The notes beneath the pieces are model-generated. The model saw nothing but the letters and a program-made list of their open reading frames with translations. It was not told the DNA's origin and searched no databases. Shown here piece after piece: positions 8,183-31,207 of a DNA stretch of 31,207 bases. This stretch comes from a virus. Taxonomy: Duplodnaviria > Caudoviricetes. The stretch spans positions 1 to 31,207 of the IMG/VR virus record IMGVR_UViG_3300042480_000415. The stretch is one strand, 5' to 3'. Made by a program: the position numbers and the translations under genes. Within the stretch, counting starts at the first letter, position 1. Every line of letters begins with the position of its first letter.

Positions 8183-9363
8183 GCGGACTGATCTGGGCCG
8201 GGATCGGCAAAGGCATCGCAGATGCCGGGACCACCTTTGGCAGCTACATGCTGAAGGACATCGAGGACCAGCGCAGGCGCGAGGACGAGGAGCGGCGCGA
8301 GGCCAACGCCATCAAGCGGGCCGAAGAAGCCACGCGCATCAAAGAAGAGAGCGACGCCAGGAAAGCTGAAGAGCTCAAGCAGCGCGTGAGCAAAGAGACC
8401 GCGCAGGTCGAGCAGCGCGCCACGCAGATTGGGACCGAGCGCCGCACTGCGCGCATGGACTCAGACGCCACCAGGTTGGGTGAGATGTCTGCCAAGGCCG
8501 GCGAAGAAGGCGACATCGCGTTCACCAAAGAGCAGATGCTTGACTTCATCCGCAAGGATCCGACGCTACGCGAGAGCTACCGCAAGTCGGGGCTGATCGA
8601 GGGCGCGGCCGAGTCGACCCGCGACCCGCGGATGATCGCTGCCGAGGACCGCGTAACCGCGGCCATGGGGATGGGTGCGCACTCGTCTGTGCTGGACGCC
8701 TACACGAAGGCGCGCAAGGACACGCTCGACGAGATCAGGCGGGAGAACGAACAGAAGAGGGCTGAGGCCTCGCAGGCTGCGACGGATCGCCGGCTGGACT
8801 TGATCGAAGAAGGGAATAGGCAGCGCGCAGCAGAAGGTAGCCGCCGAGGAGATCAGACCGATCGCCGCCTGAACATCATGGAGGCAGAGGCGCGCACCCG
8901 TGAAAGACGGGCTGAGCGCTCGGCAAGCCCGTCGGACCCGAACAAGAAGCCGGCAACCACTGCGGACATTCAGCGCCAGATCAACGCCAGCAAGGACGAC
9001 ATCGCGCTGACTCTCGGAGTCACCAAGAACGAGGTCAACGCCTCGCTTGCATCTTTGCGCAAGCGTGCCGATGCTGGTGACGCAAAAGCCAAGACAAGGC
9101 TTGAAGAGATCCAGCCGTTCCTGAACGAGCTGACGGAACTGAATGCGGCGATGAAGCAGTTCAAGCGCCCTGCTGGTGCAGAATCGGCCAACGCTCCCGC
9201 GGCGGCTCCTGCGGCTCCGGCTCCTTCTGATGCCAAGAGTCCGCCGCAGATCGCCCAAGTGCAGGGCGCCCCTGCGGGGTCCTCGATCGGCACGCTCGTG
9301 TCGGGTCGGGGCTGGGAGGTCAAGGACAAGAGCGGCAAGGTCATCGGCTACGTCGGGAAGTAA
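8179..9363 (+). CDS. Charged coiled-coil protein, putative ejection protein
   Basis: GAGGAG RBS; Gly-rich N-terminus then long R/E/K-rich helices; directly precedes the giant ORF. Confidence 0.7.
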   Translation: MSGLIWAGIGKGIADAGTTFGSYMLKDIEDQRRREDEERREANAIKRAEEATRIKEESDARKAEELKQRVSKETAQVEQRATQIGTERRTARMDSDATRLGEMSAKAGEEGDIAFTKEQMLDFIRKDPTLRESYRKSGLIEGAAESTRDPRMIAAEDRVTAAMGMGAHSSVLDAYTKARKDTLDEIRRENEQKRAEASQAATDRRLDLIEEGNRQRAAEGSRRGDQTDRRLNIMEAEARTRERRAERSASPSDPNKKPATTADIQRQINASKDDIALTLGVTKNEVNASLASLRKRADAGDAKAKTRLEEIQPFLNELTELNAAMKQFKRPAGAESANAPAAAPAAPAPSDAKSPPQIAQVQGAPAGSSIGTLVSGRGWEVKDKSGKVIGYVGK

Positions 9364-9365
9364 GC

Positions 9366-12300
9366 ATGCGATTCGTACCCATCTCCGAGTTCGAGAAGGA
9401 AGAGCAGAAGGCCTTCCGATTCATCCCGATTGAGGAGGTGGAGTCCGCCAGTACGACTGACTACTCCGACATGGCCACGGCCATGCAGGGGACGCCTACC
9501 GGCGGGCCGCTGATTCGCAGCGTGCTGGACCAGCCCGGCCCCGTGCCGAAGACGCCGGGTTACGACCCGATGCTGAATCAGGGCTATGTGGCCGAAGTCC
9601 GCCGGGACATCATCGGCAAGGCCGCGCCTGAAGACCGCATGGGCCTGCTGACCACGCTGGCCGAGAACCGCACCGATGTGCTGGGCCGTGCCGCTCGCCA
9701 GATCCTGGCCGAGGTGCAGGCAGAGAACAAGCGCATCAACCTCGATCAAGAAGGGCGCGCTCAGCGGCTGCTGGACGCACCGCGTGGCCCCGGCAACCTG
9801 CCGCCCCCGCGCCCGGGTGCAGGCGCAGCGCCGCCACCCGTGCCGGTGCCCGATGTGTCCCCTGGCATCAGCGATGTCATGGACGGGCGCACCGCCAAGC
9901 AGATCGCCGAGCGGCGCATGCTGGCGCAGGGCGTTCGCGTGGCCGATGAGGGCATGCGCGTAGACGAGATCAGTGGCGCTACCAGCCGAATGGCGGAAGC
10001 CGAAGGGCGCCGCAAGTTTGCCGAAGAGAATCCGCTGCTGGGCTCCATTGCCGCCGGCTCCGCGGGCTTGATCAGCGGCGTGATTAACATTCCCTCGGTC
10101 GCCGCAGACGCCTTCAACAAGACCGCCATCAACCCAGTGCTTCGCGCATTGGGAATGCAGGATCTTCCGCCCGTGTCTACGGCATTTGGCACTGAGTACC
10201 TGGCCAAGTCTGCCAGCGACTTCATGCCAAAAGTTGGCAAGCAAGAGATGGACGAGGCCATTGCGCGCCAAGAGTTTGCGCCCTGGCTGATGTCGAAGCT
10301 CGCCGCCAACTCGCCGCAGATCGCGCAGTCTCTGCTGGCTGCGTTTGTGCCCCCGCTGCGCGCAGTGCTGCTGCCAGGCATGGCAGGTACGGCGGCTGGC
10401 CAGAGCTTTGCCCAAGGAGACGACTCTCGCGTGGCGCTCGCCAAGGGTGCGGTGGAGTATGTATCCGAGAAGCTGCCGCTTGGCGTGTTTGACAAGGTCG
10501 GAGACGTGCTCAAGGGGATGTCTCCTGCCAAGGCCAACACGGTGTTGGCGGTGGCTGGCCAGCGCGCTCTGCAGGCCGGCGGTGCAATCACTGCCAACGG
10601 GCTGACCAACGCGATTGAGGAAGTGGCCGCACAGTTCGGTGGCAACGTGCTCGACAAGTACTTCCAAGGCAAGGACATTGAGCTGACCAAGGGCCTGGCC
10701 GAAGCCGGAGTTGTTGGCGGCGTGACGGGCAAGCTGATGAGCGCGCCTCAGGTTGCCGCCGCGGCGACCGGCTACTACGAGCCTGAGCGCCAGATTGCGC
10801 GGGAGATCGACTCGGTTGGGCGTGCGTTTGAGAACCTCGGGCCAGAGGCATCTCGAGCTATCAGCATTGACATGCTGCGCACGGAAGCCGGCACCTCCAA
10901 CCTGATCTCCCCCGCCGCGACCGTCAAGAACTTCACCCCGCCCGACTCGCCGACCAAGCAGGCTGGCCTGGTGGACATCGAGGTGCCGCTGCCAAACGCG
11001 GCTCCTATCCTGCCCGAGATCAACCCGTCGACCGAAGAGCAGTTCGGTCTGGATAAGCTGCGCATGGGAGGCGCGAATGTCGGCACAACAGGCGTACCTG
11101 GAGGACTGGCTGGAGCAGGGGGTGAGGCAGGGGGCGGTCTCATTGACGGAAGCATGGGAGCTGCAGGACCTGGCGATGCAGGTGCCCCCGGGCTCGGAGG
11201 CAGAACTGCCCCAATCCCTGGAGTCAATGATCGACAGGCTGTTCCTCCTGGAGGTGCGCCCGGCCAACAACTTGCCGGCGTAGCTGTAGGCGGTGAACCT
11301 CTGACGTGGACTGGGCGCGCAAAGACTGGCTATGCGAACGAGCAGGACGCCGAGCAGGCGATGGCCACTGCCAGCACGGTCATCGACACCAGGCAGACTC
11401 ACGACTGGCGCGTCGAGCCCATAGGCAATGGGCGCTTTCAGATTGTCGGATACCAAAAGGAGACCAACCTTGGCACGCAAACCCCTCAAGCCCAGCAAGG
11501 CCAAACGCAAGGAGCAACACCAGCAGGCCAAATGGCAGGTGCCGCACAAGGCGGCGCAGGTGGCATCCCAGCAGCAACCGGCACGCCGGTTGAACTGTCT
11601 GATACTGAACGTGCCGGACTGAAGCTTGCGCCGACGGCGCCGCTGCGAGAGCTGAGCTCGCTCAACAAGCAGCTCGATCAGCAGATCGGTGTCACGTTCT
11701 CGCCGGTCAAGTCGACCGACCTGAACGACTCGCAGCGCCTGGCCAGTGCGGTGGCGCGCCTGATGGGCAAGACCCTGACGGTAGTCCACCAGGAGACCGG
11801 TGCAGGCGCGCTGCCCAACGGCATGATCAACACCGTCGGGGGCAAGCACCTGTTTGTCGCTGACGATGCGGACGATGCCCCGCTGGCCATCACTGTGCAT
11901 GAGGCCTACCACGGCCTGCCGGAGGCTCAGCGCAAGAGCCTGAATGCTGCGCTGCTGGATCTGTTCCGCCAGGACCGCAAGGACAAGTTCCTCGACGAGT
12001 TCAGCTACACGCCGGACAAGTTCGAGGAGGAAGCCCCGGCCATGATGGTGCAGGCCATCAGCAAGCGCGAGGACTTCTGGCAGGAGCTGCGCACGAAGAT
12101 GGGCAACAAGGAGTTCGGCGAGGTGGCCAAGACCATCATCGCCAAGCTCGGCGACATCATCACCGGCGCGAAGAAGCAGTACGGCGAAGACTTTGTCAAC
12201 AAGTACATCTCCGACGTCGCGAAGGCTCGCGACCTGTTGACGACCGCCTACGCCGACGCGATGAAGGCGCAGGGCCTGCAGCCCGATGTGCAGCTCGAAG

Positions 12301-15300
12301 GCATGGCCATGGCCTCCGAGCGTTCGCGCATCGGCATGGACTTCAAGGACGTCGTCAAGCGCACGCCCGAGCTCCAGGCTGCGGCCGAGAGGGTCAAGGC
12401 CGGCGAGATGACGGCGGCCGAGTACGACAAGCTCGTCGCTGAGTACAAGCCTGTCGAGCCCTACACCTCGGTGCCTGCGCCGGCCGCCGACGCAGACATC
12501 CGGGCAGCGCTGACCAGCGACAAAGTCGACCGTATCGGTGTGCCGTCGAAGACTCTCAAGGCCGGCGACCCCGTGGGCCTGCGCCTGGACATCCCGGCCT
12601 ACTCCAACCACGGCACCTGGGTGGTGTCAGTGCATGAGCAGCAGGCGGGCTACAACGCGGGCAAGTCGATCGGATACGAGCCGGTCGCCGCTGCCACCAA
12701 CGTCACGTTCGGTGTCGTTGAGAAGGCCGCGCTGAACATCGCGGGCGGCAAGCCCAAGGCGACGATCGCCGTCATCAAGGGCGGATGGAAGCCCACGACG
12801 CCGGCCGAGGCAAAGCTCAAGGCCGACCAGGCGCTGAAGTCCAAGGACTGGGTGCAGGTCGGCATGGACCCCGAGCGGCACAGCTACTTCTACGACCGCT
12901 CCAGCATGGAGCCGGTGACGGCCGCCGACGAGGTCATCCAGATCGGCCCCCTGGTGCTGGCCAAGAACCCGACCTACGGGCAGAAGTCCGAGTTCATGTT
13001 CAGCGGCCGGGCTCGCGAGCCGATCAAGGTCAGCGACTACAACCCGAAGGCCGACAACTTCAACAAGCAGCGAGACATGACCTCGCTGCTGGCTGAAGCG
13101 GTGCCGGCAGAGACCATCGCCGCGGCCGACGGGTTCGTCGAGAAGTACTTCAAGGAGCGGCAGCCAGTCTCCGTTTCGCCGCAGGATCGCCTGCGCGCAG
13201 AGATCTTGCTGAAGCCCAGGATGGAAGCGGCCGAGCAGGCCAAGCCGGAGTACGACCAGAAAATCCTGAACATCGCAGCGCGCACCGGCGCCACCGGCCA
13301 GATGCTGGCGCCCATCAAGGGGCTCAAGCGTGCGGCCGAGAAGCTGGCGCTCGAGGAGAACTACCAGGTCGACAACATCAAGGACCTGCTGCGTTCAACC
13401 ATCGTGGTCGACAGCTACGCCGACGCGCCCGCGATCATCGACGAGATCCGCAAGGAGTTCGACGTGGTCCGCATCAAGGACCGCGCCGGCGTAGGCGTGG
13501 CTGGCGACAAGGTGGAGGCGTCAGACCGTCAGAAGTTCGGCGGCTATGCCGACGTGCTGATCAACATCAGGATGCCCAACGGCACGGTGGGTGAGATCCA
13601 GATCAATACGCCCGCCATGCTGGCCGCCAAGGATGGCCAGGGCCACAAGCTGTACGAGGCCGCCCGTGAGCAGCCTGAGGGTTCACCGCTGCGCGGCGAG
13701 ATCTACGACGCGATGCGTGGTCTTTACGACGCAGCCTTCTCGGCGGCGAACTTGCGGCAGCCCTCGGCGCAGGACAGGAACGCAGCCTCCGACATCGGGG
13801 CGCCGCGTGCCGGCAGCGAGCTGACTGCAACGAGCTCGTCGCCAGAGTCGGCGAGCTTGAAGACCTTGCCGTCAGGAAAGACGACGAACTCGTCGCCGGA
13901 GAACGAGGCAACGAACTCGCAGCCGGGCGGGAAGGAAGAGGGGACTTTCATAGGATCTCCTGACGAGTCGAGTATATCACAACCCTTATACACAAAGCCG
14001 CCTCGGCGGGGCGCCGAAAGGATCGGGAGCTTTGATGTTCGCACCATGAAGGACGGCTCGATTGTCGTCTACGGTGATTCGCAAAACATCAGATCGCAGA
14101 TCCCAGAAGACGTCAAGGGTCGCGTCACCAAGGACGGCTACCTCTTTACCAACGCAGCCGCGCCTCGTGTAAAGGCCGCGCTCGAGGGGCGCAAGACCGC
14201 CTACAGCCGCGGCGGTGCAGTGCTCGACAAGCTGCCGATGAAGGACGGCAAGTACCTGGGCGCGCCCGAGAAGTACAACACCCCTGGAAAGATCGTCGCG
14301 CTGCGCAAGCAACTGCGCATGCTCACGCTGGAGGGGGAGCGCGGCCGCTACTGGTACGAGAACAGCAGCCTGGCGATCTTGCGCATGACTGGCGGCAACG
14401 TGCAGGAGGCGCGCAAGTTCGTGGCCCTGCTGGCCATCTACAGCCCGCAGGCGCGTGTCGACAGCAACTCGACGTTTGCTCTGCGAGCCTGGGCGCAGTA
14501 CAAGGCTGGCCAGCCGATCAGCGTGAAGACCGGAGTGCAGGACAAGAAGGCGACCCAGGCCATGGCCGACGTCGACGCCTTCTGGTCTGGCGAGAAGACA
14601 GGCAACTTCTTCTTCAATCTGTTGCGCGAGATCGACACCAGCACTGCTGGCAAGCAGGGCGCGACGATCGACATGTGGATGATGCGTGCGGCCGAGTACG
14701 CCAACGACGCGCCCACTGCCACGCAGTACGCCTTCATGGAGAACGAGACCAACCGCATTGCGCAGGAAATGGGCTGGGAGCCGCAGCAAGTGCAGGCCGC
14801 CATCTGGGTCGCGATGAAGGCCCGCATGGAGAACAAGGGTGTCAAGCAGAGGACCGAGGCCACCAGCGAGAAGAAGGGCTGGATCAAGTTCGAGCGCGAT
14901 GCGAAGGGCAAGAAGGTCCGCGTGATCATCGACGCACAGAAGCACCGCGACAACTGGCTCAAGCATGCGATGGAGCATGTGCCAACGAAGGAAGACACCG
15001 AGCAGGCCAAGTTCGACTTCGCCGATGGAGTCGGGCGCCACATCGGCCAGCTTTCGTTCGAGGCTCGGCCAGGCCGCAGCACGGGCGTTCTGGATGGGAT
15101 CCACACCGCACCGTATGCCCAGCAGGTGGAGTTCCAGCAGGCCGTGCAGCGTGCGTTCTACGACGAGAACGGCACCGACATGCTGGCTGCACAGCTCGGC
15201 CTGCTGACGGAGCCCAGCGACATCATGCGCCCTGGCGTGTGGCAGGGCGAGGTGTCACCCAGCACGCAGAAGCGCGTGGCAATGGCGCCGGCTGGTGGCG

Positions 15301-18300
15301 ATGCTGGCAAGACCAACGTCGACCCGGCGCAGGCCGAACTGCTCAACGTCTATGCGTCTGTGGCTGGCCTGGTGGCCAGGCAGGAAGGGGTGGGCTGGCA
15401 CCGTCCCTTCTACGCCGGCACGAAGGGGCAGTCCAACGGCCTAGACATCGACATCGGCCGGGCGCTGAACCCAACCGAGACGAAGGACCTCGAGGCGGCG
15501 ATCGGCAAGTGGATGGATGAGAAGAAACACGCCAACTGGCAGAACCAGTTTGCGCTGATCAGCTCGCCCACTGGCATAAGAGTTGTGAATTTCGGTATCA
15601 TCACAAACGCAGTACTCCATTCCGACATCGTGAAGGTCGCGGAAGGTGTGCTGCCAGATGGATCTGTGCGCGTGTTCGCCTCAAGTGGCGACATGCCAAC
15701 TAACGACTGGGAGGCAAACCCCAATGGGCAAACTTACGTACAAAGGATTGGTGCCGCGGGACGATCCGATGTTCTCGACTGGGCCAGAAGTGTTCTCGCG
15801 CCTCGGGTCCAGCGAGTCTTCGAGGACTTCGCCGAAAAGTACCAGTGGGGAGACCCCGGCCGAATCCAGTTCAGCAACCGAGGCGGATCTGATGCAGCCG
15901 GCGGTGGACGCGATAGAGGAGTGGGGCCGCAAGACGTTCAAGCGGTAACCCCTTCCTACGGCACCCCTCGAGAGGGTGCCGCTTCCGCGGTCGCCTACCA
16001 CTACAGCACCCAGCCCCGCACGACCCTCGACAGCGTGATGTATGGCACCGGCCTGCGCGGTGCCGAGATGGCGCGCCTGCAGGGCGCAGATCCGCGCCTG
16101 AAGCAGCGCGTCTACTTCTACATCGATCGCGGCACTGGCATCAATCCTGAGGCCGGCGTGGGCGGCCAGGCCCACCGCGTCAATCTGCAGAACCTGTATG
16201 ACGTCGACGAGGACGCGCTGCGTCTGCGCCGCGACAACGAGGCCTTCAACGACTTCGAGTCTGCGGTCATCGACGCCGGCTTCGACGGCTACATGGTGCG
16301 CGACGCCGGGCCGTCAGGCAACGCGGTGCTGCTGGGTCGGCACGCCGTGCCCGTCGAGCAGCTCGGCGCACGCGGCCGCATGACAGGCGAGCCCGTCGCA
16401 CCGGCCCGCGAGCGAGTGCTGAGCGACGCTGAGAAGATCTCGGCCAACAAGATGCTGCCGGCCGGGCAGGTGTCCGGCAAGCGCTGGGCGGAGCTCATCT
16501 CTCGCGGCATGCCGGAGGTCTACGAGCGCCTGGCTGGCAGCCCGGTGTGGCAGTCCGACAAGGTCATGTACCGCGGCGATCTGGCTCGCGAGCTTCGCGC
16601 TCAGCCGATGTTCAGCAACCGCCAACTGCCGACGGTCTCACCGCAGAGCGCGCTGGACGCGGACATCAAGGTTGCGTCGGAGAGCCTGCAGCGCTACATC
16701 CGGGCTGCGGAGCAGGGGCGCCAGTTGCCCAAGCTCACGATCGGCCGCCTGCCCCATGTGCTCAACATGCTGGGCGCACGCACGCAGGATTTCGACATCG
16801 CCACCAGCATTGTCAAGAAGGTGTTTGTCAGGACCAAAGCAGAAAAAGGACACGCGGACGAGCTGCCCGACATCACGCCCAAGCAGCTCATCGAGGGCAT
16901 CTACCGCCCGGCCATGGTGCTGAAGTCGAAGGACGGCAACCCTCGCGAGTTCGAGCTGGTGCTGCCCATCACCAACGACAAGGGCGCGGTGATCGTCCCG
17001 ATCAAGGTGTCGGTGGACAAGACCGATCCGACCGGCGCGGTGATGTCGATCTACGCCAAGGGCGTGTCGATCTCCGGCGGCAAGCCGAACGAGCAGGTGC
17101 TGATGAAACGCATCAACGACGGCAACCTGCTGTACCTGGACCCCGGCCTGGCCAAGCAGGCGCTGACTGGTCGCAAGGCTGGAGATCCTAAGGCTGACGT
17201 CAAGCTCAATGGCAACTTCGTGTCTTGGCCTGGGGTGTGGCCCAAGCTGGCGGAGATGATCTCTGCGCGCACGGTCAAGACCGACATCAACCTAATGGGC
17301 TGGATCGGCAAATACTACACGCCGAGCTCGTCGCCGCAGGGCTGGGAGGATGCGCCCGCATTCAGCCGTCGTGCTCAGACCGAGACGCCCGAATTCAAGC
17401 GCTGGTTCGGCAACAGCAAGGTGCTTGAGAAGCCAGGAAGGACTATTGATCAGGCCCGCGCCTTGGAGATTGCAAGTCTCAAGCGCGAGATGGATTCCTT
17501 GCCGTATGCCGAAAACGAGCTGAAGGACTATGGGGAGCGGTTCAAGGAGGACCCCGATCGCGCCGGCTGGTGGGGGCCCAAGATCGAGAAGCAAAAGTCT
17601 TTGATTGCCTCATTGAAAATAGAGAACGAGAAGGCGCGCGAAAGGATCGCCGAGCTTGAGTCGGGTGGAACGCCAACCAAGTTCCCCTTCAGCGATGGGT
17701 CGAAGAAGCCAAAGGTGATGTACCACGCCACCGACAACCCGCTCGAGGGTGGCGTGTTCAGAATCGGAGTTGGCGGAGCGATCTATGTGTCACCCGACCC
17801 CGATGCGGCCGAGGACATTGCCAAGCCCAAGATCTTCGGCAAGCGCTTCCCTGGTGTGCCGTTCTCGCCAGATCTGATGGGGGGACCTGACCTCTTCCAG
17901 GGGCTCAACGTCATCCCCGTCTACGTCAAGGCAGAGAACCCATTCGACTACGAAATCAAGGAGCACAGGCAGGCTCTTGCCGATCACCTCAAGAGCATTG
18001 GCTTTAAGCCGCCCAGTGCCGTGCAATTGGCCGAGGACGCACCAGACGAGGCGTCTGGTGCAAGCGACATCCTCGAGATGATCCACGCCGGCGACTACCG
18101 CGTGATCGAGAGCCCAGAGGCGATTGAGTGGATCAAGAAGAACAACTTCGACGGGTTCTACGTTCAGGAGCTTCAGGAGGACGAAGAGATAAAGAACCTC
18201 GGCGTCTTCTCATCGAACCAGATTAAGTCCGCCATCGGCAACATCGGTACGTTCGATCCGGCCAACCCGGACATCCGCTTCAGCCAGCGCGCCCGCGCTG

Positions 18301-18485
18301 AGGACAAGGAAGTGGCCAGCCTGTTCCGCGATCTGCAAGATGCCCGCGGCCTTGGGCGCGTGCGTGCGCTCGAGCGGGTTGACGCGCACCCGATGGCTGA
18401 GACAATCCGCCGCATCGACCAAGAGTTCATGAACATCCTGGAGCGGCTTGACGACGCCGGCCTGGTGAAGATCAACTGCAAGTGA
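9366..18485 (+). CDS. Large polyvalent (multi-effector) internal virion protein, 3039 aa
   Basis: Single 9.1-kb ORF with several recognisable catalytic motifs (listed as domain features); architecture matches described phage polyvalent proteins. Confidence 0.9.
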   Translation: MRFVPISEFEKEEQKAFRFIPIEEVESASTTDYSDMATAMQGTPTGGPLIRSVLDQPGPVPKTPGYDPMLNQGYVAEVRRDIIGKAAPEDRMGLLTTLAENRTDVLGRAARQILAEVQAENKRINLDQEGRAQRLLDAPRGPGNLPPPRPGAGAAPPPVPVPDVSPGISDVMDGRTAKQIAERRMLAQGVRVADEGMRVDEISGATSRMAEAEGRRKFAEENPLLGSIAAGSAGLISGVINIPSVAADAFNKTAINPVLRALGMQDLPPVSTAFGTEYLAKSASDFMPKVGKQEMDEAIARQEFAPWLMSKLAANSPQIAQSLLAAFVPPLRAVLLPGMAGTAAGQSFAQGDDSRVALAKGAVEYVSEKLPLGVFDKVGDVLKGMSPAKANTVLAVAGQRALQAGGAITANGLTNAIEEVAAQFGGNVLDKYFQGKDIELTKGLAEAGVVGGVTGKLMSAPQVAAAATGYYEPERQIAREIDSVGRAFENLGPEASRAISIDMLRTEAGTSNLISPAATVKNFTPPDSPTKQAGLVDIEVPLPNAAPILPEINPSTEEQFGLDKLRMGGANVGTTGVPGGLAGAGGEAGGGLIDGSMGAAGPGDAGAPGLGGRTAPIPGVNDRQAVPPGGAPGQQLAGVAVGGEPLTWTGRAKTGYANEQDAEQAMATASTVIDTRQTHDWRVEPIGNGRFQIVGYQKETNLGTQTPQAQQGQTQGATPAGQMAGAAQGGAGGIPAATGTPVELSDTERAGLKLAPTAPLRELSSLNKQLDQQIGVTFSPVKSTDLNDSQRLASAVARLMGKTLTVVHQETGAGALPNGMINTVGGKHLFVADDADDAPLAITVHEAYHGLPEAQRKSLNAALLDLFRQDRKDKFLDEFSYTPDKFEEEAPAMMVQAISKREDFWQELRTKMGNKEFGEVAKTIIAKLGDIITGAKKQYGEDFVNKYISDVAKARDLLTTAYADAMKAQGLQPDVQLEGMAMASERSRIGMDFKDVVKRTPELQAAAERVKAGEMTAAEYDKLVAEYKPVEPYTSVPAPAADADIRAALTSDKVDRIGVPSKTLKAGDPVGLRLDIPAYSNHGTWVVSVHEQQAGYNAGKSIGYEPVAAATNVTFGVVEKAALNIAGGKPKATIAVIKGGWKPTTPAEAKLKADQALKSKDWVQVGMDPERHSYFYDRSSMEPVTAADEVIQIGPLVLAKNPTYGQKSEFMFSGRAREPIKVSDYNPKADNFNKQRDMTSLLAEAVPAETIAAADGFVEKYFKERQPVSVSPQDRLRAEILLKPRMEAAEQAKPEYDQKILNIAARTGATGQMLAPIKGLKRAAEKLALEENYQVDNIKDLLRSTIVVDSYADAPAIIDEIRKEFDVVRIKDRAGVGVAGDKVEASDRQKFGGYADVLINIRMPNGTVGEIQINTPAMLAAKDGQGHKLYEAAREQPEGSPLRGEIYDAMRGLYDAAFSAANLRQPSAQDRNAASDIGAPRAGSELTATSSSPESASLKTLPSGKTTNSSPENEATNSQPGGKEEGTFIGSPDESSISQPLYTKPPRRGAERIGSFDVRTMKDGSIVVYGDSQNIRSQIPEDVKGRVTKDGYLFTNAAAPRVKAALEGRKTAYSRGGAVLDKLPMKDGKYLGAPEKYNTPGKIVALRKQLRMLTLEGERGRYWYENSSLAILRMTGGNVQEARKFVALLAIYSPQARVDSNSTFALRAWAQYKAGQPISVKTGVQDKKATQAMADVDAFWSGEKTGNFFFNLLREIDTSTAGKQGATIDMWMMRAAEYANDAPTATQYAFMENETNRIAQEMGWEPQQVQAAIWVAMKARMENKGVKQRTEATSEKKGWIKFERDAKGKKVRVIIDAQKHRDNWLKHAMEHVPTKEDTEQAKFDFADGVGRHIGQLSFEARPGRSTGVLDGIHTAPYAQQVEFQQAVQRAFYDENGTDMLAAQLGLLTEPSDIMRPGVWQGEVSPSTQKRVAMAPAGGDAGKTNVDPAQAELLNVYASVAGLVARQEGVGWHRPFYAGTKGQSNGLDIDIGRALNPTETKDLEAAIGKWMDEKKHANWQNQFALISSPTGIRVVNFGIITNAVLHSDIVKVAEGVLPDGSVRVFASSGDMPTNDWEANPNGQTYVQRIGAAGRSDVLDWARSVLAPRVQRVFEDFAEKYQWGDPGRIQFSNRGGSDAAGGGRDRGVGPQDVQAVTPSYGTPREGAASAVAYHYSTQPRTTLDSVMYGTGLRGAEMARLQGADPRLKQRVYFYIDRGTGINPEAGVGGQAHRVNLQNLYDVDEDALRLRRDNEAFNDFESAVIDAGFDGYMVRDAGPSGNAVLLGRHAVPVEQLGARGRMTGEPVAPARERVLSDAEKISANKMLPAGQVSGKRWAELISRGMPEVYERLAGSPVWQSDKVMYRGDLARELRAQPMFSNRQLPTVSPQSALDADIKVASESLQRYIRAAEQGRQLPKLTIGRLPHVLNMLGARTQDFDIATSIVKKVFVRTKAEKGHADELPDITPKQLIEGIYRPAMVLKSKDGNPREFELVLPITNDKGAVIVPIKVSVDKTDPTGAVMSIYAKGVSISGGKPNEQVLMKRINDGNLLYLDPGLAKQALTGRKAGDPKADVKLNGNFVSWPGVWPKLAEMISARTVKTDINLMGWIGKYYTPSSSPQGWEDAPAFSRRAQTETPEFKRWFGNSKVLEKPGRTIDQARALEIASLKREMDSLPYAENELKDYGERFKEDPDRAGWWGPKIEKQKSLIASLKIENEKARERIAELESGGTPTKFPFSDGSKKPKVMYHATDNPLEGGVFRIGVGGAIYVSPDPDAAEDIAKPKIFGKRFPGVPFSPDLMGGPDLFQGLNVIPVYVKAENPFDYEIKEHRQALADHLKSIGFKPPSAVQLAEDAPDEASGASDILEMIHAGDYRVIESPEAIEWIKKNNFDGFYVQELQEDEEIKNLGVFSSNQIKSAIGNIGTFDPANPDIRFSQRARAEDKEVASLFRDLQDARGLGRVRALERVDAHPMAETIRRIDQEFMNILERLDDAGLVKINCK
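11077..11283 (+). CDS. Nested +1-frame small acidic protein (68 aa) within polyvalent ORF
   Basis: GGAGG at 11067-11071, ATG 11077. Codons CTG/GAG/GAC/CAG are genome-typical, while the host frame here is a GGA/GCA-coded Gly-rich linker. Confidence 0.6.
   Translation: MSAQQAYLEDWLEQGVRQGAVSLTEAWELQDLAMQVPPGSEAELPQSLESMIDRLFLLEVRPANNLPA
11470..11622 (+). CDS. Possible nested +1-frame basic peptide (50 aa, TTG start; MARKPLKPSKAKRK...)
   Basis: AAGGAG at 11457-11462, 7 nt before TTG; host frame is a low-complexity Q/G/T linker. Confidence 0.35.
   Translation: MARKPLKPSKAKRKEQHQQAKWQVPHKAAQVASQQQPARRLNCLILNVPD
11640..12290 (+). other. Zincin-like metallopeptidase (MPTase-type) domain
   Basis: LPNGMINT...LFVADD...AITVHEAYH (11898-11912) and downstream FEEEAPA; boundaries approximate. 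Confidence 0.7.
13230..13740 (+). other. RelA/SpoT-like nucleotidyltransferase domain
   Basis: IKGLKRAAEK / IKDLLRSTIVV / GGYADVLINI / GEIQINT / GHKLYE, ordered like the synthetase motifs but diverged; boundaries approximate. Confidence 0.8.
13724..13951 (-). CDS. Nested antisense small protein (75 aa), candidate immunity/antitoxin for the RelA/SpoT-like domain
   Basis: Minus strand AGGAGA-TCCT-ATG; MKVPSSFPPGCEFVASFSGDEFVVFPDGKVFKL... globular-looking; sense frame here is an S/T-rich linker; own promoter-like element. Function is inference. Confidence 0.6.
   Translation of the reverse strand: MKVPSSFPPGCEFVASFSGDEFVVFPDGKVFKLADSGDELVAVSSLPARGAPMSEAAFLSCAEGCRKFAAEKAAS
13971..13979 (-). promoter_or_regulatory. 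Extended -10 element (TGATATACT) upstream of the nested antisense gene
   Basis: TGn-TATACT in an AT-rich island ~20 nt upstream of ATG 13951; the same 9-mer occurs in the 29405-29432 promoter. Confidence 0.55.
14340..14830 (+). other. HhH-GPD / Ogg-like DNA glycosylase-type domain
   Basis: YWYE...LLAIYSPQ...SGEKTGNFFFNL...ATIDMWMMR...PQQVQAAIW; Lys (14595) and Asp (14670) sit as in the GxK..F..N...IDxH motif of Ogg-type enzymes. Confidence 0.55.
15724..15948 (+). CDS. Possible nested +1-frame protein (74 aa; MGKLTYKGLVPRDDPMFSTGPEVF...)
   Basis: GGAGG at 15710-15714; host-frame codons become atypical here (GTA CAA AGG ATT, GGA CGA); AT-rich patch at 15575-15620 upstream. Confidence 0.4.
   Translation: MGKLTYKGLVPRDDPMFSTGPEVFSRLGSSESSRTSPKSTSGETPAESSSATEADLMQPAVDAIEEWGRKTFKR
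15990..16350 (+). other. ADP-ribosyltransferase-like domain 1
   Basis: AYHYS...YGTG...RVYFY...NLYD...AGFDGY pattern parallels the other ART-like domains in the window. Confidence 0.55.
16730..17140 (+). other. MuF-C / PBECR-like (predicted RNase-fold) domain
   Basis: IGRLPHVLNMLG...KGH...KQLIEGIYRPAMVLKS...VIVPIKV...VMSIYAK. Confidence 0.6.
17376..18285 (+). other. ART-PolyVal-like ADP-ribosyltransferase domain 2 (with coiled-coil insertion)
   Basis: ETPEFKRWFGNSKV...PKVMYHAT...IYVSPD...VIPVYVKAENPFD...FDGFYV...VFSSNQIKSAIGNIGTFDPANPDIRFS. Confidence 0.8.
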
Positions 18486-18494
18486 GGTATCACA

Positions 18495-18986
18495 ATGCCT
18501 GTTTCCAACCTTCTCGACAAGCCCACCGAGGACATGCTGAACAAGGCTGTCCACGCCGAGCTCTACGCCTCGCACTTGTACCGCCATGTGTCCAACCAGA
18601 TGCAGCGCGTCGGGTTCTTCGGCACGCAGAAGTTCTTCGCTGGCGAGAGCGCTGACGAGCTGAAGCACTACCAGCTCATCGCCGACTACATGAACGACCG
18701 CGGCACCAGCGCGAAGGTGCCGGCGCTCGAGGCCTGCACTGAGGTGGTCACCGACATCGTCGACGCCATTGAGCTGGGCTACGAGACCGAGCTGCAGCTC
18801 ATGCGCGACTACGAGAAGTGGTATCGCGAGTGCAAGTGCGTGACGACCCAGCAGTTCATGCTGCAGTTCCTCGAGACCCAGCGCAAGAGCGTGGGCGAGT
18901 ACGGCGACCTGATGTCACGCCTGGGCCTGGTAAGCGGCGACAAGGCGGGCATGCTGATGATGGACCAGGAGCTGGGCAATGGCTGA
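18495..18986 (+). CDS. Ferritin-like protein (non-haem ferritin family)
   Basis: GAGGT RBS; AELYASHLY, FF..ESADELKH...YMNDRG, YETEL, TQQFMLQFLETQ; 163 aa, ferritin length and ferroxidase ligand spacing. Confidence 0.85.
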   Translation: MPVSNLLDKPTEDMLNKAVHAELYASHLYRHVSNQMQRVGFFGTQKFFAGESADELKHYQLIADYMNDRGTSAKVPALEACTEVVTDIVDAIELGYETELQLMRDYEKWYRECKCVTTQQFMLQFLETQRKSVGEYGDLMSRLGLVSGDKAGMLMMDQELGNG

Positions 18987-21900
18987 TTGCACCTACACGT
19001 TCAAGACTGCGGAGGGCGAGGTCACCATCAAGGGGATGGCCGAGATGAAGGCCTTCCTCGCCTTGAACGGTGTGGGTGCTATTGATGGCGCCAAGGCGCC
19101 TATGTTCAGCCAGCGCGCTTTTCACGGTACGCCGCACCGTGGCATCAACAAGTTCAGCACCGACAAGATCGGCACCGGCGAGGGAGCCCAGGCCTACGGC
19201 TGGGGGCTGTACTTCGCCGACAAGCGAGAGATCGCGGAGCACTACCGCAAGGTTCTGCAGGGCGGCCCGCTTGGGTTGAAAGTGCAAGGGGCTGCCACCC
19301 GGGCGCTGGGCGTTGAGTACGACGAAGCCGCATCTTCGTCGCAGTTCATTGATGGGGTGCGCAATGTCGCCGGCAACGGCGAGGATGCGGTGCGCGAAGC
19401 CATCATCAAGACCGCAGACAGGATGTCGCGATCGCAGTGGCCCGGCGACAAGCGTTTGGCTGAGCGTGTGCGGGCGCTTGCGGACAACACCGCTGTCGTG
19501 AAGGCCGTCAACAAAGAAGCCGCTGGCCAACTCTACGAGGTTGAAATCCCTGAGGACAGCGAGATGCTGCTGTGGGACAAGCCACTGAGCGAGCAGTCGG
19601 AGGCGGTGCGGGCGGCCGTTGACAAGCTATTTGAAAACGGGGCACTGGACGACGGCTCCAAAAAGCTCATTGAGTCGCAAGGCATGCGCCAAGATTTGAA
19701 GGGCAAGACCCTTTACGAACTGCTCGCGACATCAGACAACTTGGCCATCGACGGCACGGGCCGCGCCGCCAGCCTGGCGCTGGCCGAAGCGGGCATCAAG
19801 GGTATCAAGTATCTTGACGGCACCAGTCGCGACGCAGGCGGTGGCAGCTACAACTATGTGGTGTTCAGCGGCGACGATGTGGCAATTCAGCAAGCCTTTT
19901 ACAGCAAGCGCGCCAAGCAGTCCTGGTTCCTCGGCCGCGACGACCTGGGCAACTTCACCTTCGGCGCCGGCGCGAAGGCCTACCGCTACGCGGCGGACAT
20001 GGCCAACCTGGTGTTGGACAAGATGGCGCTCAAGCCCATCAGCACCGACCTGTCGCGGGCCATGCGGAAGATGAAGATGGAGATCTCCAAGGCTCAGGAG
20101 CTGACGGTGGACGTGGCCACCAAGCTGCAGGAGCTGCCGCAGCAAGAGCGCGAGATGATCAGCGACGTCATCGAAGGCGAGCTCAAGCGTGGCGCCAAGC
20201 CGCCCAAGCGGGTGCTCGAGCTGGCGGCCAGCATGCAGGCCATCATGTCCGAGCAGACCGCCGAGCTGGTGCGCCTGGGCATGCTGACAAAGGACGCGGC
20301 CGGCCGGTGGGACGGCAAGTACCTGCCGCGCTTCTACGAGTCCAAGCTGAAGAGCGAGGCCAACGGGTGGGTCAAGGCGGCCAAGGCGTTGCTCGGCCGC
20401 AAGAAGACCATGCAGGGCATCGGCGGCTCCAGCCTGAAGGGTCGGGGTCTGTTTCAGACCATACCCGTTGAAGACCTCGAGGCCTGGCTTGCCGAGGGAT
20501 GGGAGGAACGCGACCCCGACTTTGACCCCGACACCGACACTGAGATCACGGTCTGGCGCGACTACACCCGCCAGGAGCGCGACGACATGGGCGAGATTCG
20601 GGACTCCATGTTCCGGTTCGTCATGGGCTACAGCAAGAGCCAGCGTGACATCTCGCTGGGCCGGCTGTACGAGAACATCGCCAGCACCGTAGCCAGCAAG
20701 AAGGAGAAGCCTGGTTTCGTGCAGGTGCCGCGCACCAACATCGAGGACACCTATGCCAAGCGGTACGGCAAGCTTGCCGGCATGTGGGTTCCCCAAGAGG
20801 TGCTGGACCACCTGACCGCTTTCGATGACTCGATGCAGAGCGAGGTGCTGAAGATGTACCTCAAGGGCATGAGCATGTGGAAGGAGGGCAAGACCGTGCT
20901 GAACCCGGTCAGCCACGCCAACAACATCATGTCCAACGTGACCATGGCGCACTTCGCTGGCGTTTCCTACTGGGACGCTCACAAGTATGTGGCCACCACG
21001 CGCGACATCATGAAGAACGCGCCGATGCTGCAGGAGGCGAAGGACGCCGGCCTGTGGCTGGGCACCATGACCCAGGCCGAGATGACCGACCTCCTGCCTG
21101 ACCAGCTCAAGGTGCTGGCCGCCAAGACAGAGAGCAAGTCGGGCCAGGCGGTGGAAGGCGTGTGGAACGCGCTGTCGTTCTGGCTGCGCAAGCCTATGGG
21201 CAAGGCCTACGAGGCCGAGGACCTGTTCTTCCGCTACCTGATCTACCGCGATGCGCGCACGAAGGGGCTGACCCCAGATGAGTCCGTCGACTACGCCCAG
21301 AAGTTCATCTTCACCTACGACGACCTGCCGAAGAACGCCAGGCGCATCCGCGACTTCGCCCTGCCGTTCTTCGCCTACACCTACAAGGCGATCCCGGCGA
21401 TGGCCGAGACGGCGCTGACACACCCATGGCGGTATGCCGCCCCGGCAGCAGCCCTGTACACGATCAACGCGGCCATGTACGCGATCGCTGCGGGGGCGGG
21501 TGAGGACGAGGAGTGGTGGGAGCTGATCAAGCGGCGCTTCACTGACGAGGACTTCGCGGCCCAGGCCAAGGCCCTGGAGGCGGACGAGCGCAAGAACCTT
21601 CCCGAGTGGATGAAGGGCGCCAGCCTGACGCTGGGGACCTACAAGTCCATCCGCCTCGGGATGGACGAGGCGACAAACCTGCCCGTGTTCCTGGACGTCA
21701 GCCGGATCTTCCCGGGCGGCGACCTGTTCGACGCGGTCAACAACGCGGGCGGCGTGCCGCTGATCGCACCGCTCACTCCGAACAACCCGATCCTGACAAC
21801 GGCCTACGCCATGCTGGCCAACAAGGACACGTTCCGAGGCAAGGACATTGTGACCCCGGCCGACACCGACGCGGAGGCCGCAGCCAAGCGCGCCGACTGG

Positions 21901-22299
21901 GCGTGGAAGCAGTTCACCCCAGCGGTCGCGGTGGGTAACGCCCACTTCGAGCGGGCGATGAACGTGATCGCCAACCAGATGGGCAAGCCGCTGGACCTTG
22001 GCATCGCCGAGTACACCGGCGTGGACAAGCAGGGTCAGCCGGTGTCGCTTGCCTACTCTGCCATGCAGACCGTCGGCATCAAGGCCAGGCCCATCGACCT
22101 AGAGCTGTCAGAGAAGATCCGGCAGTCGCAGGAGAACAAGCTCATCCGAGACATCGAGGCCAGCATGCGCAGCATTCGCCGCCTGGAGCAGAAGGGTGCG
22201 ATCAGCTCCGAAAATGCCGAGCGCCAGATCGAGCTGCAGCAGGAAAAGAGAGACCGGCTCAGGGCCGGTCTCACGGTGGAAGGCGAGGAGCGGGACTGA
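18979..22299 (+). CDS. Second large internal virion protein: N-terminal ART-like domain plus helical ejection-protein-like C-terminal region
   Basis: AGGAG RBS; AFHGTPH...IGTGEGAQAYGWGLYF...LYEVEIP...GIKGIKYLD...NYVVF, then NPVSHANNIMSN...FTYDDLP...PFFAYTYK and a hydrophobic segment. Confidence 0.85.
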   Translation: MADCTYTFKTAEGEVTIKGMAEMKAFLALNGVGAIDGAKAPMFSQRAFHGTPHRGINKFSTDKIGTGEGAQAYGWGLYFADKREIAEHYRKVLQGGPLGLKVQGAATRALGVEYDEAASSSQFIDGVRNVAGNGEDAVREAIIKTADRMSRSQWPGDKRLAERVRALADNTAVVKAVNKEAAGQLYEVEIPEDSEMLLWDKPLSEQSEAVRAAVDKLFENGALDDGSKKLIESQGMRQDLKGKTLYELLATSDNLAIDGTGRAASLALAEAGIKGIKYLDGTSRDAGGGSYNYVVFSGDDVAIQQAFYSKRAKQSWFLGRDDLGNFTFGAGAKAYRYAADMANLVLDKMALKPISTDLSRAMRKMKMEISKAQELTVDVATKLQELPQQEREMISDVIEGELKRGAKPPKRVLELAASMQAIMSEQTAELVRLGMLTKDAAGRWDGKYLPRFYESKLKSEANGWVKAAKALLGRKKTMQGIGGSSLKGRGLFQTIPVEDLEAWLAEGWEERDPDFDPDTDTEITVWRDYTRQERDDMGEIRDSMFRFVMGYSKSQRDISLGRLYENIASTVASKKEKPGFVQVPRTNIEDTYAKRYGKLAGMWVPQEVLDHLTAFDDSMQSEVLKMYLKGMSMWKEGKTVLNPVSHANNIMSNVTMAHFAGVSYWDAHKYVATTRDIMKNAPMLQEAKDAGLWLGTMTQAEMTDLLPDQLKVLAAKTESKSGQAVEGVWNALSFWLRKPMGKAYEAEDLFFRYLIYRDARTKGLTPDESVDYAQKFIFTYDDLPKNARRIRDFALPFFAYTYKAIPAMAETALTHPWRYAAPAAALYTINAAMYAIAAGAGEDEEWWELIKRRFTDEDFAAQAKALEADERKNLPEWMKGASLTLGTYKSIRLGMDEATNLPVFLDVSRIFPGGDLFDAVNNAGGVPLIAPLTPNNPILTTAYAMLANKDTFRGKDIVTPADTDAEAAAKRADWAWKQFTPAVAVGNAHFERAMNVIANQMGKPLDLGIAEYTGVDKQGQPVSLAYSAMQTVGIKARPIDLELSEKIRQSQENKLIRDIEASMRSIRRLEQKGAISSENAERQIELQQEKRDRLRAGLTVEGEERD

Positions 22300-22300
22300 C

Positions 22301-22945
22301 CTACTCGCCCCGCTCGTCGTAGGTCACCGTCGAGGTGTCGCCCAGGCGCCACTTCGCGGTGTTCTCCACCCGGAAGATGCGGTTGCACACCTTGAAGTCC
22401 GGCATGCGCAGGTTGGAGTGCGTGATCGCCGGGTCGAAGAACCTGCAGCGGTTGTTCGGCTGCAGTGCGAACTGGCCGTTGTCCAGGCGCAGAAGGTTGA
22501 ACGACTTGTGCTCCTCCGGCGTCTCGCTGAACCCGAAGTCAGGGACCCGCGGGTCGGGGTTGCACGAGTCGATCGTCAGCATGTACTCGCCACCGTGGAG
22601 CTGCTTGTCCTTGCCGAAGAACTCAGCGCGCAGGCCCTTGAGGAAGGGCTTGTCGATCACCTCGATGTGGTAGCTCATGCAGTCCCAGATCTGCAGGACA
22701 TCCAGCGGTAGCTGGTCATCCTCCTCCAGGACGTCGTGCCACACGAACGCGCTCAGCGGGAGCTTGTCGTACAGCGCGCCGAACTCCGGCAGGTAGGTCT
22801 CGAAGCGGAAGGCCTGGCCGCGGATGGACTTTGCGCTGACCCAGATCCCTTCGATGAGCTGGCCGACCCGGGCCGGGTCGTGGCCGTAGAGGTACTCGGC
22901 GCGCACGAAGACCTTCTCGGGCGGCAGGGGGCAGACGAAGCTCAT
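22301..22945 (-). CDS. Conserved phage hypothetical protein
   Basis: Start trimmed to ATG 22945 (AAGGAGG RBS, ATGA overlap); VRAEYLY...GALYDKLPLSAF...LQIWDC...NGQFALQPNNR. Confidence 0.8.
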   Translation of the reverse strand: MSFVCPLPPEKVFVRAEYLYGHDPARVGQLIEGIWVSAKSIRGQAFRFETYLPEFGALYDKLPLSAFVWHDVLEEDDQLPLDVLQIWDCMSYHIEVIDKPFLKGLRAEFFGKDKQLHGGEYMLTIDSCNPDPRVPDFGFSETPEEHKSFNLLRLDNGQFALQPNNRCRFFDPAITHSNLRMPDFKVCNRIFRVENTAKWRLGDTSTVTYDERGE

Positions 22946-23259
22946 GCTGCCTCCTTGACGAAGACGCCAGATGGCAGCAGTGTGCCCTTGCGGTTCTTGA
23001 TTTCGTCGTATGCGCCGGCCAGACAGTCGACCACGTCGATGTCTAGCAGGGCACACATGTTGATCAGGCACACCAGGGTGTCGCCGACGGCGTCCTTGGT
23101 GGCGGCCAGATCCTTCTTGTTAATGGCGTCGGCCAGCTCGCCCATCTCCGACACAGCCTTCAGGAACTGAGCCTGCGCCGTGCTGTTCGGGATGATGCGC
23201 CTGGCCTCAGCCCAGCGGATGACATCCATCTCGACTTCGCGGTAGTTGGGGCGGTTCAT
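22942..23259 (-). CDS. MazG-like nucleotide pyrophosphohydrolase
   Basis: KAVSEMGELADA...KDAVGDTLV (ExxE...DxxD); AYDEIKNRKG; start ATG 23259. Confidence 0.85.
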   Translation of the reverse strand: MNRPNYREVEMDVIRWAEARRIIPNSTAQAQFLKAVSEMGELADAINKKDLAATKDAVGDTLVCLINMCALLDIDVVDCLAGAYDEIKNRKGTLLPSGVFVKEAA

Positions 23260-23477
23260 GATTCCCTCGCTTCCAGCATGGCGTCGGCCATCTTGTAGGC
23301 GGCCTTGGCCGCCCAGCGCTCCGTCATCCCCATGGCTCTGGGCAAGCAGATTCCAGCGAAATAATCGCGCAGGGTCATGCCGTCGCAGACCACCATTGAC
23401 TTGGCGTATGTCGTGCCTTCTGGCACCTCCGGTCGGTGAACCGGAAATGCCGGCCCGCCTGTCTTGGGTTCGCTCAT
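23256..23477 (-). CDS. Conserved small phage protein (GGPAFP...GMTLRDYFA...AYKMADAML)
   Basis: Recognisable widespread phage motif; ATGA overlaps on both sides. Confidence 0.8.
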   Translation of the reverse strand: MSEPKTGGPAFPVHRPEVPEGTTYAKSMVVCDGMTLRDYFAGICLPRAMGMTERWAAKAAYKMADAMLEARES

Positions 23478-29404: not shown

Positions 29405-29432
29405 AGTATATCAGCATTGTGATGCTGGTCAA
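29405..29432 (-). promoter_or_regulatory. Sigma70-type promoter with palindromic operator-like spacer
   Basis: TTGACC-N16-TATACT with extended -10 TG; CAGCA-TCACAA-TGCTG inverted repeat between the hexamers. Confidence 0.75.
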
Positions 29433-30716: not shown

Positions 30717-31172
30717 TTATTGCTCGGGTATTCCAGAGAGCCGCCGGATCGCCCGCTGATACCTGGGTTCCAGAACCTGGCGCCGCTCTTCTCTGAGCTG
30801 CGACAGGCGATCGGGATGCAGGTTGTGCAGCACGTCCGCGAGCTTGATGATCTTCGCCTCGACACCCGCGGCAATGACCCGGTCCAGGTAGGCGCCGTAG
30901 TCTTCGCCCTCGCGCTTGGTGAGCGCTTCCACGAGCTGCAGTGAGCGCTCCGACACGCCGGCCGCGCGTAGCGTGTTGAGGCTGTGGAAGGTGTCCTCCA
31001 CGACGTCGTGCAGCACCGCTGCGCACTGCGCGTCGATGTCGTTTGGTAGCTGCTTGGCCACCGTGTGCATCACGGTCAGGGGGTGCAGGATGTAGGCCAT
31101 GCCGGCCTTGTCCTTCTGTCCGTTGTGCGCGTCGGCGGCGATGCCGATCGCGTAGAAAAGGTTGTCGTGCAT
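30717..31172 (-). CDS. HD-domain small alarmone hydrolase-like protein (SpoT/Mesh1-type HD domain)
   Basis: AHNGQKDKAGMAYILHP, AVLHDVVEDT, IKLADVLHNL; ATG 31172 preferred over GTG 31181 by RBS spacing. Confidence 0.85.
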   Translation of the reverse strand: MHDNLFYAIGIAADAHNGQKDKAGMAYILHPLTVMHTVAKQLPNDIDAQCAAVLHDVVEDTFHSLNTLRAAGVSERSLQLVEALTKREGEDYGAYLDRVIAAGVEAKIIKLADVLHNLHPDRLSQLREERRQVLEPRYQRAIRRLSGIPEQ

Positions 31173-31207
31173 GGTACTCACCCCTCGTACACGGCCAGGC
31201 GGCCGGG

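Follow-up and report, generated by a model that had tools for sequence, protein, structure and literature searches.

An antisense gene nested behind a Tas1/Apk-like synthetase domain in a phage polyvalent protein gene, and its probable role as an immunity gene

Layout, conservation and selection of the nested gene

The phage record IMGVR_UViG_3300042480_000415 (Caudoviricetes; positions 1 to 31,207, called the window below) contains a giant gene (9366..18485, + strand) with an open frame of 3039 amino acids (aa) that codes for a phage polyvalent protein. The parts recognized in it were an HExxH motif (aa 845-849), a Phage_L5_gp82-like domain, an Apk/Tas1-like alarmone synthetase domain, DUF7178, MuF_C and ART-PolyVal. 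The synthetase domain, a predicted (p)ppApp-making toxin, occupies aa 1258-1465 (13137..13760, + strand). It is internal, with 1574 aa following it within the polyprotein, and is succeeded by a ‘linker’ rich in S, T, N, P and G (13761..13990, + strand). An earlier note, made from the DNA letters alone, had proposed that an immunity gene for this domain is hidden opposite the linker. The open reading frame (ORF) it described was present (13724..13951, - strand; 75 aa plus a TAA stop) and codes for a predicted Tis1-like immunity protein. Also present were a Shine-Dalgarno (SD) sequence, AGGAGA (13956..13961, - strand), 4 nucleotides (nt) before the ATG, and an extended -10 promoter-like element, TGATATACT (13971..13979, - strand), ending 19 nt before the ATG and 9 nt before AGGAGA. 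Read on the opposite strand, the nested gene and its promoter give the linker. The ORF had been said to end at the C-terminus of the domain; it does adjoin the domain, but its final ~10 codons overlap the domain's last helix, and its stop is made up of the codon of an invariant Tyr (aa 1454) and the base before that codon.

No -35 region was found at this promoter-like site in the window, and a generic promoter scan requiring one overlooked it. The only other exact copy of TGATATACT in the window, which the earlier note had also pointed out, lies outside the cassette (29405..29413, - strand) and forms part of a fuller promoter-like site (TTGACC, a 16-nt spacer and TATACT) ahead of - strand replication and recombination genes. 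When one mismatch was allowed the window still gave two matches, a number reached by 28 of 100 shuffles and therefore not above chance; the shared 9-mer is by itself weak evidence. An open antisense frame in this phase is common as well (1041 of 5541 70-codon windows elsewhere). However, 13951 was the only antisense start with both an SD sequence and a TG-N-TANNNT element inside the five long + strand ORFs scanned. It is the combination of signals and the conservation of the layout, not the open frame alone, that exceeds chance. A longer reading of 107 aa from an ATG at 14047 was rejected, as homologues start at the Met at 13951 and many have in-frame stops shortly upstream.

The earlier note had suggested testing whether homologues of the domain keep the antisense ORF, and homologues of both the 75-aa protein and the domain were sought. 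The small protein had 27 called homologues (57-97% identity), as well as 56 representatives at E ≤0.001, of which a few were spurious repeat proteins. Loci fetched with the small-protein alignment numbered 42, some of them redundant; in 32 the gene was nested antisense in a long open frame and in ten it stood alone. A synthetase lay directly behind the nested gene in 31 of the 32, the remaining locus being cut by the contig end. The reverse search, with a synthetase alignment built from nested loci and therefore leaning toward the window's clade, returned 67 loci. A homologous ORF was present at all 40 that belong to the window's clade, including the 18 that come from contigs absent from query building. 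The protein found no family match in Pfam, PHROGs, NCBIfam or PADLOC, no usable hit in the ESM Atlas and no cultured-phage match in INPHARED; three INPHARED records matched the synthetase domain, all distant and of the ordinary same-strand type.

The start signals were conserved together with the ORF. Among 36 unique copies the start codon was ATG in 33, and an SD match of at least 4 bases preceded it in 34, as against 86 of 2032 background antisense ATGs. The TG-N-TANNNT element was found in 27 of the 36 (ending 19 nt before the start in 24 of these) but at only 7 of the 2032 background ATGs, while both signals occurred together in 26 copies and at no background ATG. When antisense starts were screened across 20 giant-ORF stretches with a similar filter, strict enough to miss five known nested genes, 18 of 5003 passed and 17 of these lay at the synthetase-linked site. 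A general occurrence of nested antisense genes in such polyproteins was not supported, the filtered signal being found only behind the synthetase.

Third codon positions coincide in the two frames, as the earlier note had cautioned. Selection was therefore measured by counting, over 39 unique loci, third-position transversions that left both neighbouring codon contexts unchanged, sorted by the protein they alter. In the overlap, changes altering only the antisense protein occurred at 0.13 of the synonymous rate (269 pairs; 95% interval 0.05-0.29), or at 0.17 (interval 0.06-0.33) when 18 non-overlapping pairs were used; those altering only the polyprotein occurred at 0.60 and 0.47 of that rate, respectively. 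In the synthetase region, which served as an internal control, the pattern was reversed (antisense-only 1.13 and 1.26; sense-only 0.29 and 0.25). The result held when the alignment was made on the sense protein (0.18-0.21 for antisense-only against 0.59-0.65 for sense-only changes). The antisense protein is the more constrained frame in the overlap, the linker showing weak constraint as a protein, and the sense frame does not explain the constraint on the antisense one, which is what selection on an embedded antisense gene entails. Tyr, His and Gln, whose codons can give rise to stops in the frame of the host gene, are almost missing from the nested proteins, so that both frames are kept open.

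An ORF of this kind might be the mere shadow of a conserved linker, or the only product of its promoter might be an antisense RNA by which the late polyprotein gene is silenced. The frequent openness of this phase would fit, as would the tie between the first two codon positions and the sense frame, and a convergent transcript could dampen the sense gene. The antisense frame, however, is under stronger selection even in the sense-protein alignment, the ATG and SD sequence are conserved at a fixed spacing, the product has a confident predicted fold, and the opposite frame is closed in the stand-alone copies (on both sides of the ORF, and inside it in three of the ten). Such an explanation is largely refuted and retains hardly any probability; 13951-13724 (- strand) is almost certainly a real nested antisense gene. 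Another antisense frame, of 1087 codons (9348-12611, - strand), runs opposite the first third of the polyprotein gene and resembles a GC-rich shadow ORF.

The synthetase domain and its predicted complex with the nested product

The domain had been described as RelA/SpoT-like, and a sub-threshold RelA_SpoT match was found at aa 1318-1429 of the 3039-aa protein. Sequence and fold comparisons bore this description out and refined it to the Tas1/Apk type of (p)ppApp synthetase. Tas1 (6ox6_A) was the best sequence match (E 2.4e-6 with a single sequence; 8.7e-17 with a profile) and the sole sequence-level match of note in the PDB. The model of the domain (predicted local distance difference test, pLDDT, 90.5) had Tas1 at rank 1 in Foldseek (E 1.1e-8; template modelling score 0.66). 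In 21 aligned loci K61, R65, K69, D83, R86, G136-Y137, D139, E153, H170, Y173, E174 and Y197 were invariant. The K/R residues, D-x-x-R, G-Y, E-x-Q and the GHxLYE tail, invariant or nearly so in these loci, align with Tas1, and the GHxLYE tail is common to both. We take these residues to be catalytic, the K/R residues presumably forming the donor site. No PAAR or Phage_Mu_F match was found anywhere in the 3039-aa protein. Tas1 and its relatives in phage MuF proteins (Apk2) are described as making (p)ppApp and as having small Tis1-like immunity proteins (available text of PMC10083569 and PMC11782079); by analogy, the domain in the window may be expected to make (p)ppApp.

The 75-aa product was modelled as a small β-sheet with a C-terminal helix (pLDDT 94.9). 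In a structural scan of 48,161 solved chains, rank 1 was Tis1 (6ox6_B; Z 4.8, root-mean-square deviation 3.5, 58 residues aligned). This score alone means little; it gains weight from the identity of the top match, since Tis1 is the immunity protein of Tas1, which the neighbouring domain itself matches best. Foldseek returned nothing at E ≤0.001 for the model in the PDB, and Tis1 was not among the matches listed; in BFVD there was likewise nothing at E ≤0.001, the best rows being small uncharacterised phage proteins. Comparison with Tis1-like proteins by hhalign gave a probability of 0.1% (against a shallow alignment of three sequences), and the partner profile (A3) had no match to 6ox6_B in the PDB.

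Co-folding of domain and partner, another check proposed in the earlier note, gave a score of 0.76, while the best of three controls scored 0.00. The mark used was reached by 116 of 157 solved pairs and by 2 of 215 mismatched pairs. Contact agreement was at least 55% and partner pLDDT at least 86. In the predicted complex a loop of the partner, F17-S18-G19, sits in the synthetase active site and touches D83, D139, E153, Q155, K114 and K165. Of 36 interface residues, 12 belong to the 25 invariant residues of the synthetase (Fisher p 1.3e-4). The 75-aa product is thus predicted to bind the synthetase and block its active site.

It could be argued that the product does bind the domain, but that the domain is something other than a (p)ppApp toxin (an enzyme that makes (p)ppGpp or modifies tRNA, or one of only mild activity) and that the partner is a regulator, or a chaperone for folding or packaging. 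The low identity to Tas1 leaves room for this, other alarmone synthetases are close in Foldseek (8vx3, E 3.6e-8), and some internal synthetase domains lack a nested partner. Yet only Tas1 stood out among sequence-level matches in the PDB, the tail is shared with it, and the predicted interface covers the active site. In the available text of PMC11782079, moreover, enzymes that make (p)ppApp are paired with Tis1-like partners, and those that target tRNA with pZFD partners. Such an alternative is considered unlikely. That the nested gene is the cognate immunity gene of the adjacent, likely (p)ppApp-making toxin domain is held with high confidence.

Exchange of the cassette and origin of the nesting

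The synthetase, the nested gene and its promoter form a swappable cassette at approximately 12990..13990, with breaks in identity near 12990, 13890 and 13990 in relatives L055, L057 and L053. L055 shares 98-100% identity with the window at 12811-12930 and also, but for one 60-base bin at 83%, at 13891-14550; between those flanks the identity is only 33-85%, and its synthetase and most of the partner gene have been replaced together. L057 shows the same swap, and both L057 and L053 carry a different downstream domain from near 13990, just beyond the -10 element. The earlier suggestion that domain and immunity gene travel as one is supported by these swaps and by the orphan copies described next. 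A further modular indel inside the polyprotein gene was seen at 12286-12307, where close relatives L049 and L055 have ~350 additional bases.

None of the ten stand-alone copies has a synthetase nearby in the available DNA. In three of them, which have phage-like contexts, the match to nested copies begins ~41 nt upstream of the ATG and extends over most or all of the ORF; these three also retain a remnant of the toxin's last helix. These orphans, each a promoter plus immunity gene, lie in the Rha/antirepressor region of related phages (L031:736-1006, L035:3357-3628 and L039:433-716). Stand-alone homologues outside polyprotein contexts were found in L036, L038, L041, L046 and L047; those of L041 and L046 have C-terminal extensions. 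A metallophosphoesterase-like gene is adjacent in L038 and L041, and in L038 there is an NrtR-type NUDIX regulator as well. Copies without a nearby synthetase, three of them lifted out with their promoter, might point to a defensive moron, directed chiefly against foreign Tas1/Apk-type toxins (of rival phages or type VI secretion systems), cognate protection being secondary. Orphan copies, however, are also expected of a cognate immunity gene; the gene is kept at 40 of 40 in-clade synthetase loci, and the partner changes when the synthetase changes. BcTis1 gave no protection against Apk1 (available text of PMC10083569), so that such proteins tend to be cognate-specific. A mainly defensive role is regarded as highly improbable.

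Outside the window's clade, the 27 distant loci comprised 18 with a nested gene, three with a convergent partner, one with a same-strand Tis1 homologue (E 1.2e-21 to 6ox6_B) and five without a partner. The 18 distant nested loci, redundant and representing about six lineages, have an antisense ORF of 68-88 aa with an SD sequence, in the same phase, behind an internal synthetase. In L095 and L099 a C-terminal synthetase is overlapped tail-to-tail by the small partner gene; in L115 a convergent Tis1-like gene abuts a C-terminal synthetase, also tail-to-tail. In a synthetase tree of 57 distinct sequences out of 65 rows (five in-clade loci and L115 left out), the window's clade formed one group (99/96), with the convergent L095 and L099 branching successively below a nested clade (support 100/98 and 100/95); several deep branches of this tree are long and unsure, and so is its root. 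The partners of L095 and L099 match nested partners, and the nested partner of L092 weakly matches a true Tis1 homologue (E 0.002 among 17 sequences), although nested partners from different clades are mostly not alignable. Three unusual arrangements were also recorded: the L085 synthetase is fused to a portal domain; one protein of L095 (2-2860) combines Acb1 (anti-CBASS), MuF and the C-terminal synthetase, with the convergent partner gene overlapping it; and in L006 (3001-3777) a Tas1-like domain continues in frame, with no stop, into Tis1-like sequence, as a toxin-immunity fusion or with an in-frame internal start.

The earlier note held that the immunity gene was overprinted in the linker. 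The gene is indeed nested opposite the linker, but the direction is probably backwards: the antisense frame is the more constrained, its product has a Tis1-like predicted fold, and tail-to-tail pairs are basal in one clade. The origin that we favour, with reasonable though not strong confidence, is a toxin gene with a tail-to-tail immunity gene, in which the toxin's stop was read through and the reverse strand of the immunity gene became linker. Read-through of a convergent pair fits the order of the tree, which makes the linker the younger product. De novo origin of the immunity gene, by overprinting of an existing linker, would agree with the failure of profile comparison to detect sequence homology to Tis1-like proteins and with the poor alignability of partners across clades, and the tail-to-tail forms might have arisen from nested ones by secondary truncation. 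It accords less well with the likeness of the predicted partner fold to Tis1, the L092 match, the Tis1 homologue lying tail-to-tail with the L115 synthetase, and the position of L095 and L099, whose partners match nested ones, below their nested relatives. This second origin is given roughly one chance in a few.

Several observations weigh against an immunity gene cognate to a (p)ppApp-making domain. The domain is only 27% identical to Tas1 in the Foldseek alignment, and its nucleotide product is deduced from likeness alone. The Tis1 match is weak, at 7% identity and with a Z of 4.8 against 4.7 for the unrelated chain 2jlp_A. The co-fold was run on the analysis's own alignments and may partly reflect memory of the Tas1-Tis1 complex, which has already been solved. 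Where the two genes overlap, the sense frame is still under some constraint. In 28 of 35 loci the antisense stop follows GHxLYE at a distance of 27 codons, but this is no independent evidence, since the stop is forced by the invariant Tyr of the toxin. One of the swaps has a break within the partner gene, and the divergence of the partners is only moderately correlated with that of the toxins (Mantel rho 0.33, 38 loci), a correlation that would also arise from shared ancestry alone. Finally, the internal synthetases of L085, L086 and L091 have intact-looking motifs but no nested gene, and the C-terminal synthetases of L109 and L113 have no visible partner.

Phage context, proposed function and relation to known systems

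The window is a phage record estimated as ~55% complete, and its sequence is present in lake-water DNA runs, no RNA run being listed among those that contain it; four DNA runs that were compared showed strain variation and nothing decisive. On the + strand are tail and lysozyme genes and large genes of the structural region, and on the - strand a helicase, a Cas4-like nuclease, Sak4 and further early-type genes. Among the - strand genes is also a MazG-like nucleotide pyrophosphohydrolase (22942-23484, - strand); enzymes of this type can act on alarmones too. A ferritin-like gene (18495-18986, + strand) lies between the polyvalent gene and that of a second large protein (18979-22299, + strand; 1106 aa), with a partial ART-PolyVal match at its start. 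A relative is present in the Hydrogenophaga intermedia genome; in the cultured strain S1 of that species a prophage carries the cassette (L111). Of 24 related records, 4 were assigned to proviruses. The phage group is therefore likely to be temperate on Betaproteobacteria.

ART-PolyVal, MuF_C and HExxH mark the 3039-aa protein as a polyvalent protein. Its architecture varies among the nine relatives scanned, and the giant proteins of relatives include ddrB-ParB, methylase-helicase and InPase domains. From its position among structural and lysis genes, and by analogy with the polyvalent proteins of Iyer et al. 2017 (available text of PMC5512222), it is probably packaged in the virion and injected with the DNA.

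An HD-domain gene near the end of the window (30717..31181, - strand) is Aph1-like, its best PDB match being the (p)ppApp hydrolase Aph1 (7smg_A, E 1.7e-13). It is not linked to the synthetase, lying 17 kb from it in the window, and is found in 4 of 24 related records (3 of the 18 near-complete ones). As the main antidote it was rejected, only 3 of 18 near-complete records carrying one; it may provide a second, enzymatic protective layer. In L132 (aa 3485-3574) and L134 (G014 and G016) an HD_4 alarmone-hydrolase-like domain lies within the synthetase-bearing giant protein itself.

Because the domain lies mid-protein, its partner gene cannot follow on the same strand; because the partner is nested in the domain's own DNA, the pair stays linked through domain shuffling. 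In the mechanism proposed, host sigma-70 polymerase would read the extended -10 constitutively, on the strand of the replication (early) genes. The resulting short-leader mRNA would be independent of late transcription, so that the antidote would be present in lysogens and before polyprotein synthesis. The antidote, predicted to insert into the synthetase active site and block it, would protect the producing cell and cells holding the same cassette. More speculatively, the virion-delivered domain might act at entry, or against cells with a non-matching cassette.

Among the closest known systems is Tas1 (Apk1)-Tis1 of the type VI secretion system of Pseudomonas aeruginosa PA14 (PDB 6OX6). The domain has its best sequence and fold match in Tas1, and the partner its best wide-search fold match, a weak one, in Tis1, which is of similar size; the blocking of the active site predicted here is described for Tis1 in the available text of PMC11782079. 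Unlike that system, the present one is phage-encoded, and its synthetase is internal to a 3039-aa protein. The partner gene is antisense, nested in the gene for that protein and preceded by a promoter-like element of its own, and the partner has no detectable sequence homology to Tis1-like proteins. The Apk2 MuF toxins of temperate phages (e.g. Bordetella phage PHB04), as described in the available text of PMC10083569, are also phage-borne synthetases whose small partner is always present. There, too, the Tis1-like gene is constant and the hydrolase (Aph1) variable, as it is among the 24 records related to the window. The Apk2 toxin, however, is the C-terminal domain of a MuF protein, and the genes for its partner and the hydrolase come next on that strand. 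The window instead has an internal domain with an antisense partner nested behind it, and its hydrolase gene is 17 kb off; in two relatives the hydrolase is built into the giant protein. The strict Apk1/Apk2 layout set out in the same source (a C-terminal toxin fused to PAAR or MuF, with downstream same-strand immunity) differs from that of the window, and homology to Tis1 was not detected in the sequence; the system is for these reasons not filed in the Apk1/Apk2 or Tis1 families, although by analogy it would work like them.

The polyvalent proteins of PMC5512222 are likewise giant and modular, with ART-PolyVal, MuF_C and HExxH, and RelA/SpoT domains are described among them. The words ‘antisense’, ‘opposite strand’ and ‘overlap’ do not occur in the main text of that paper, which names no immunity gene for the RelA/SpoT domain; in the available text of PMC12691689, ‘polyvalent’ and ‘antisense’ do not occur. 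The embedded antisense genes nog1, asa and laoB (available text of PMC7457138) are, as here, protein-coding ORFs fully embedded antisense to another gene. Those genes are described as typically young and without a clear partner, whereas the present family is old, its antisense frame is under stronger selection than the host frame, and the target predicted for it is a specific one, which the host gene encodes. Searches of the literature, with most subscription papers out of their reach, turned up no account of an immunity gene nested antisense in the gene for a phage polyvalent protein. The biochemistry is of a known kind (Tas1-Tis1, Apk2), while the gene architecture is apparently unreported.

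Whether long antiparallel overlaps in prokaryotes are coding is disputed, most of them showing no negative selection (available text of 10.1101/724807; the dispute is also treated in that of PMC7457138). The present case adds to this dispute a conserved family in which the hidden frame is under stronger selection than the host frame and for which a specific function is proposed. It offers an answer to how a toxic domain can lie in the middle of a polyprotein without killing its producer. It implies that some ‘low-complexity linkers’ are each the shadow of another gene, and it opens a route to immunity genes so far missed. On a more speculative reading, polyproteins of several lineages may have taken up a lethal (p)ppApp toxin and its antidote by read-through of a tail-to-tail pair, giving polymorphic toxin/antidote keys that phages swap. 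The injected domain would then drain host ATP or kill non-matching cells, and the nested gene, among the first expressed after entry and also active in lysogens, would switch it off, which would make the pair a hidden kin-recognition and timing device within a virion protein gene.

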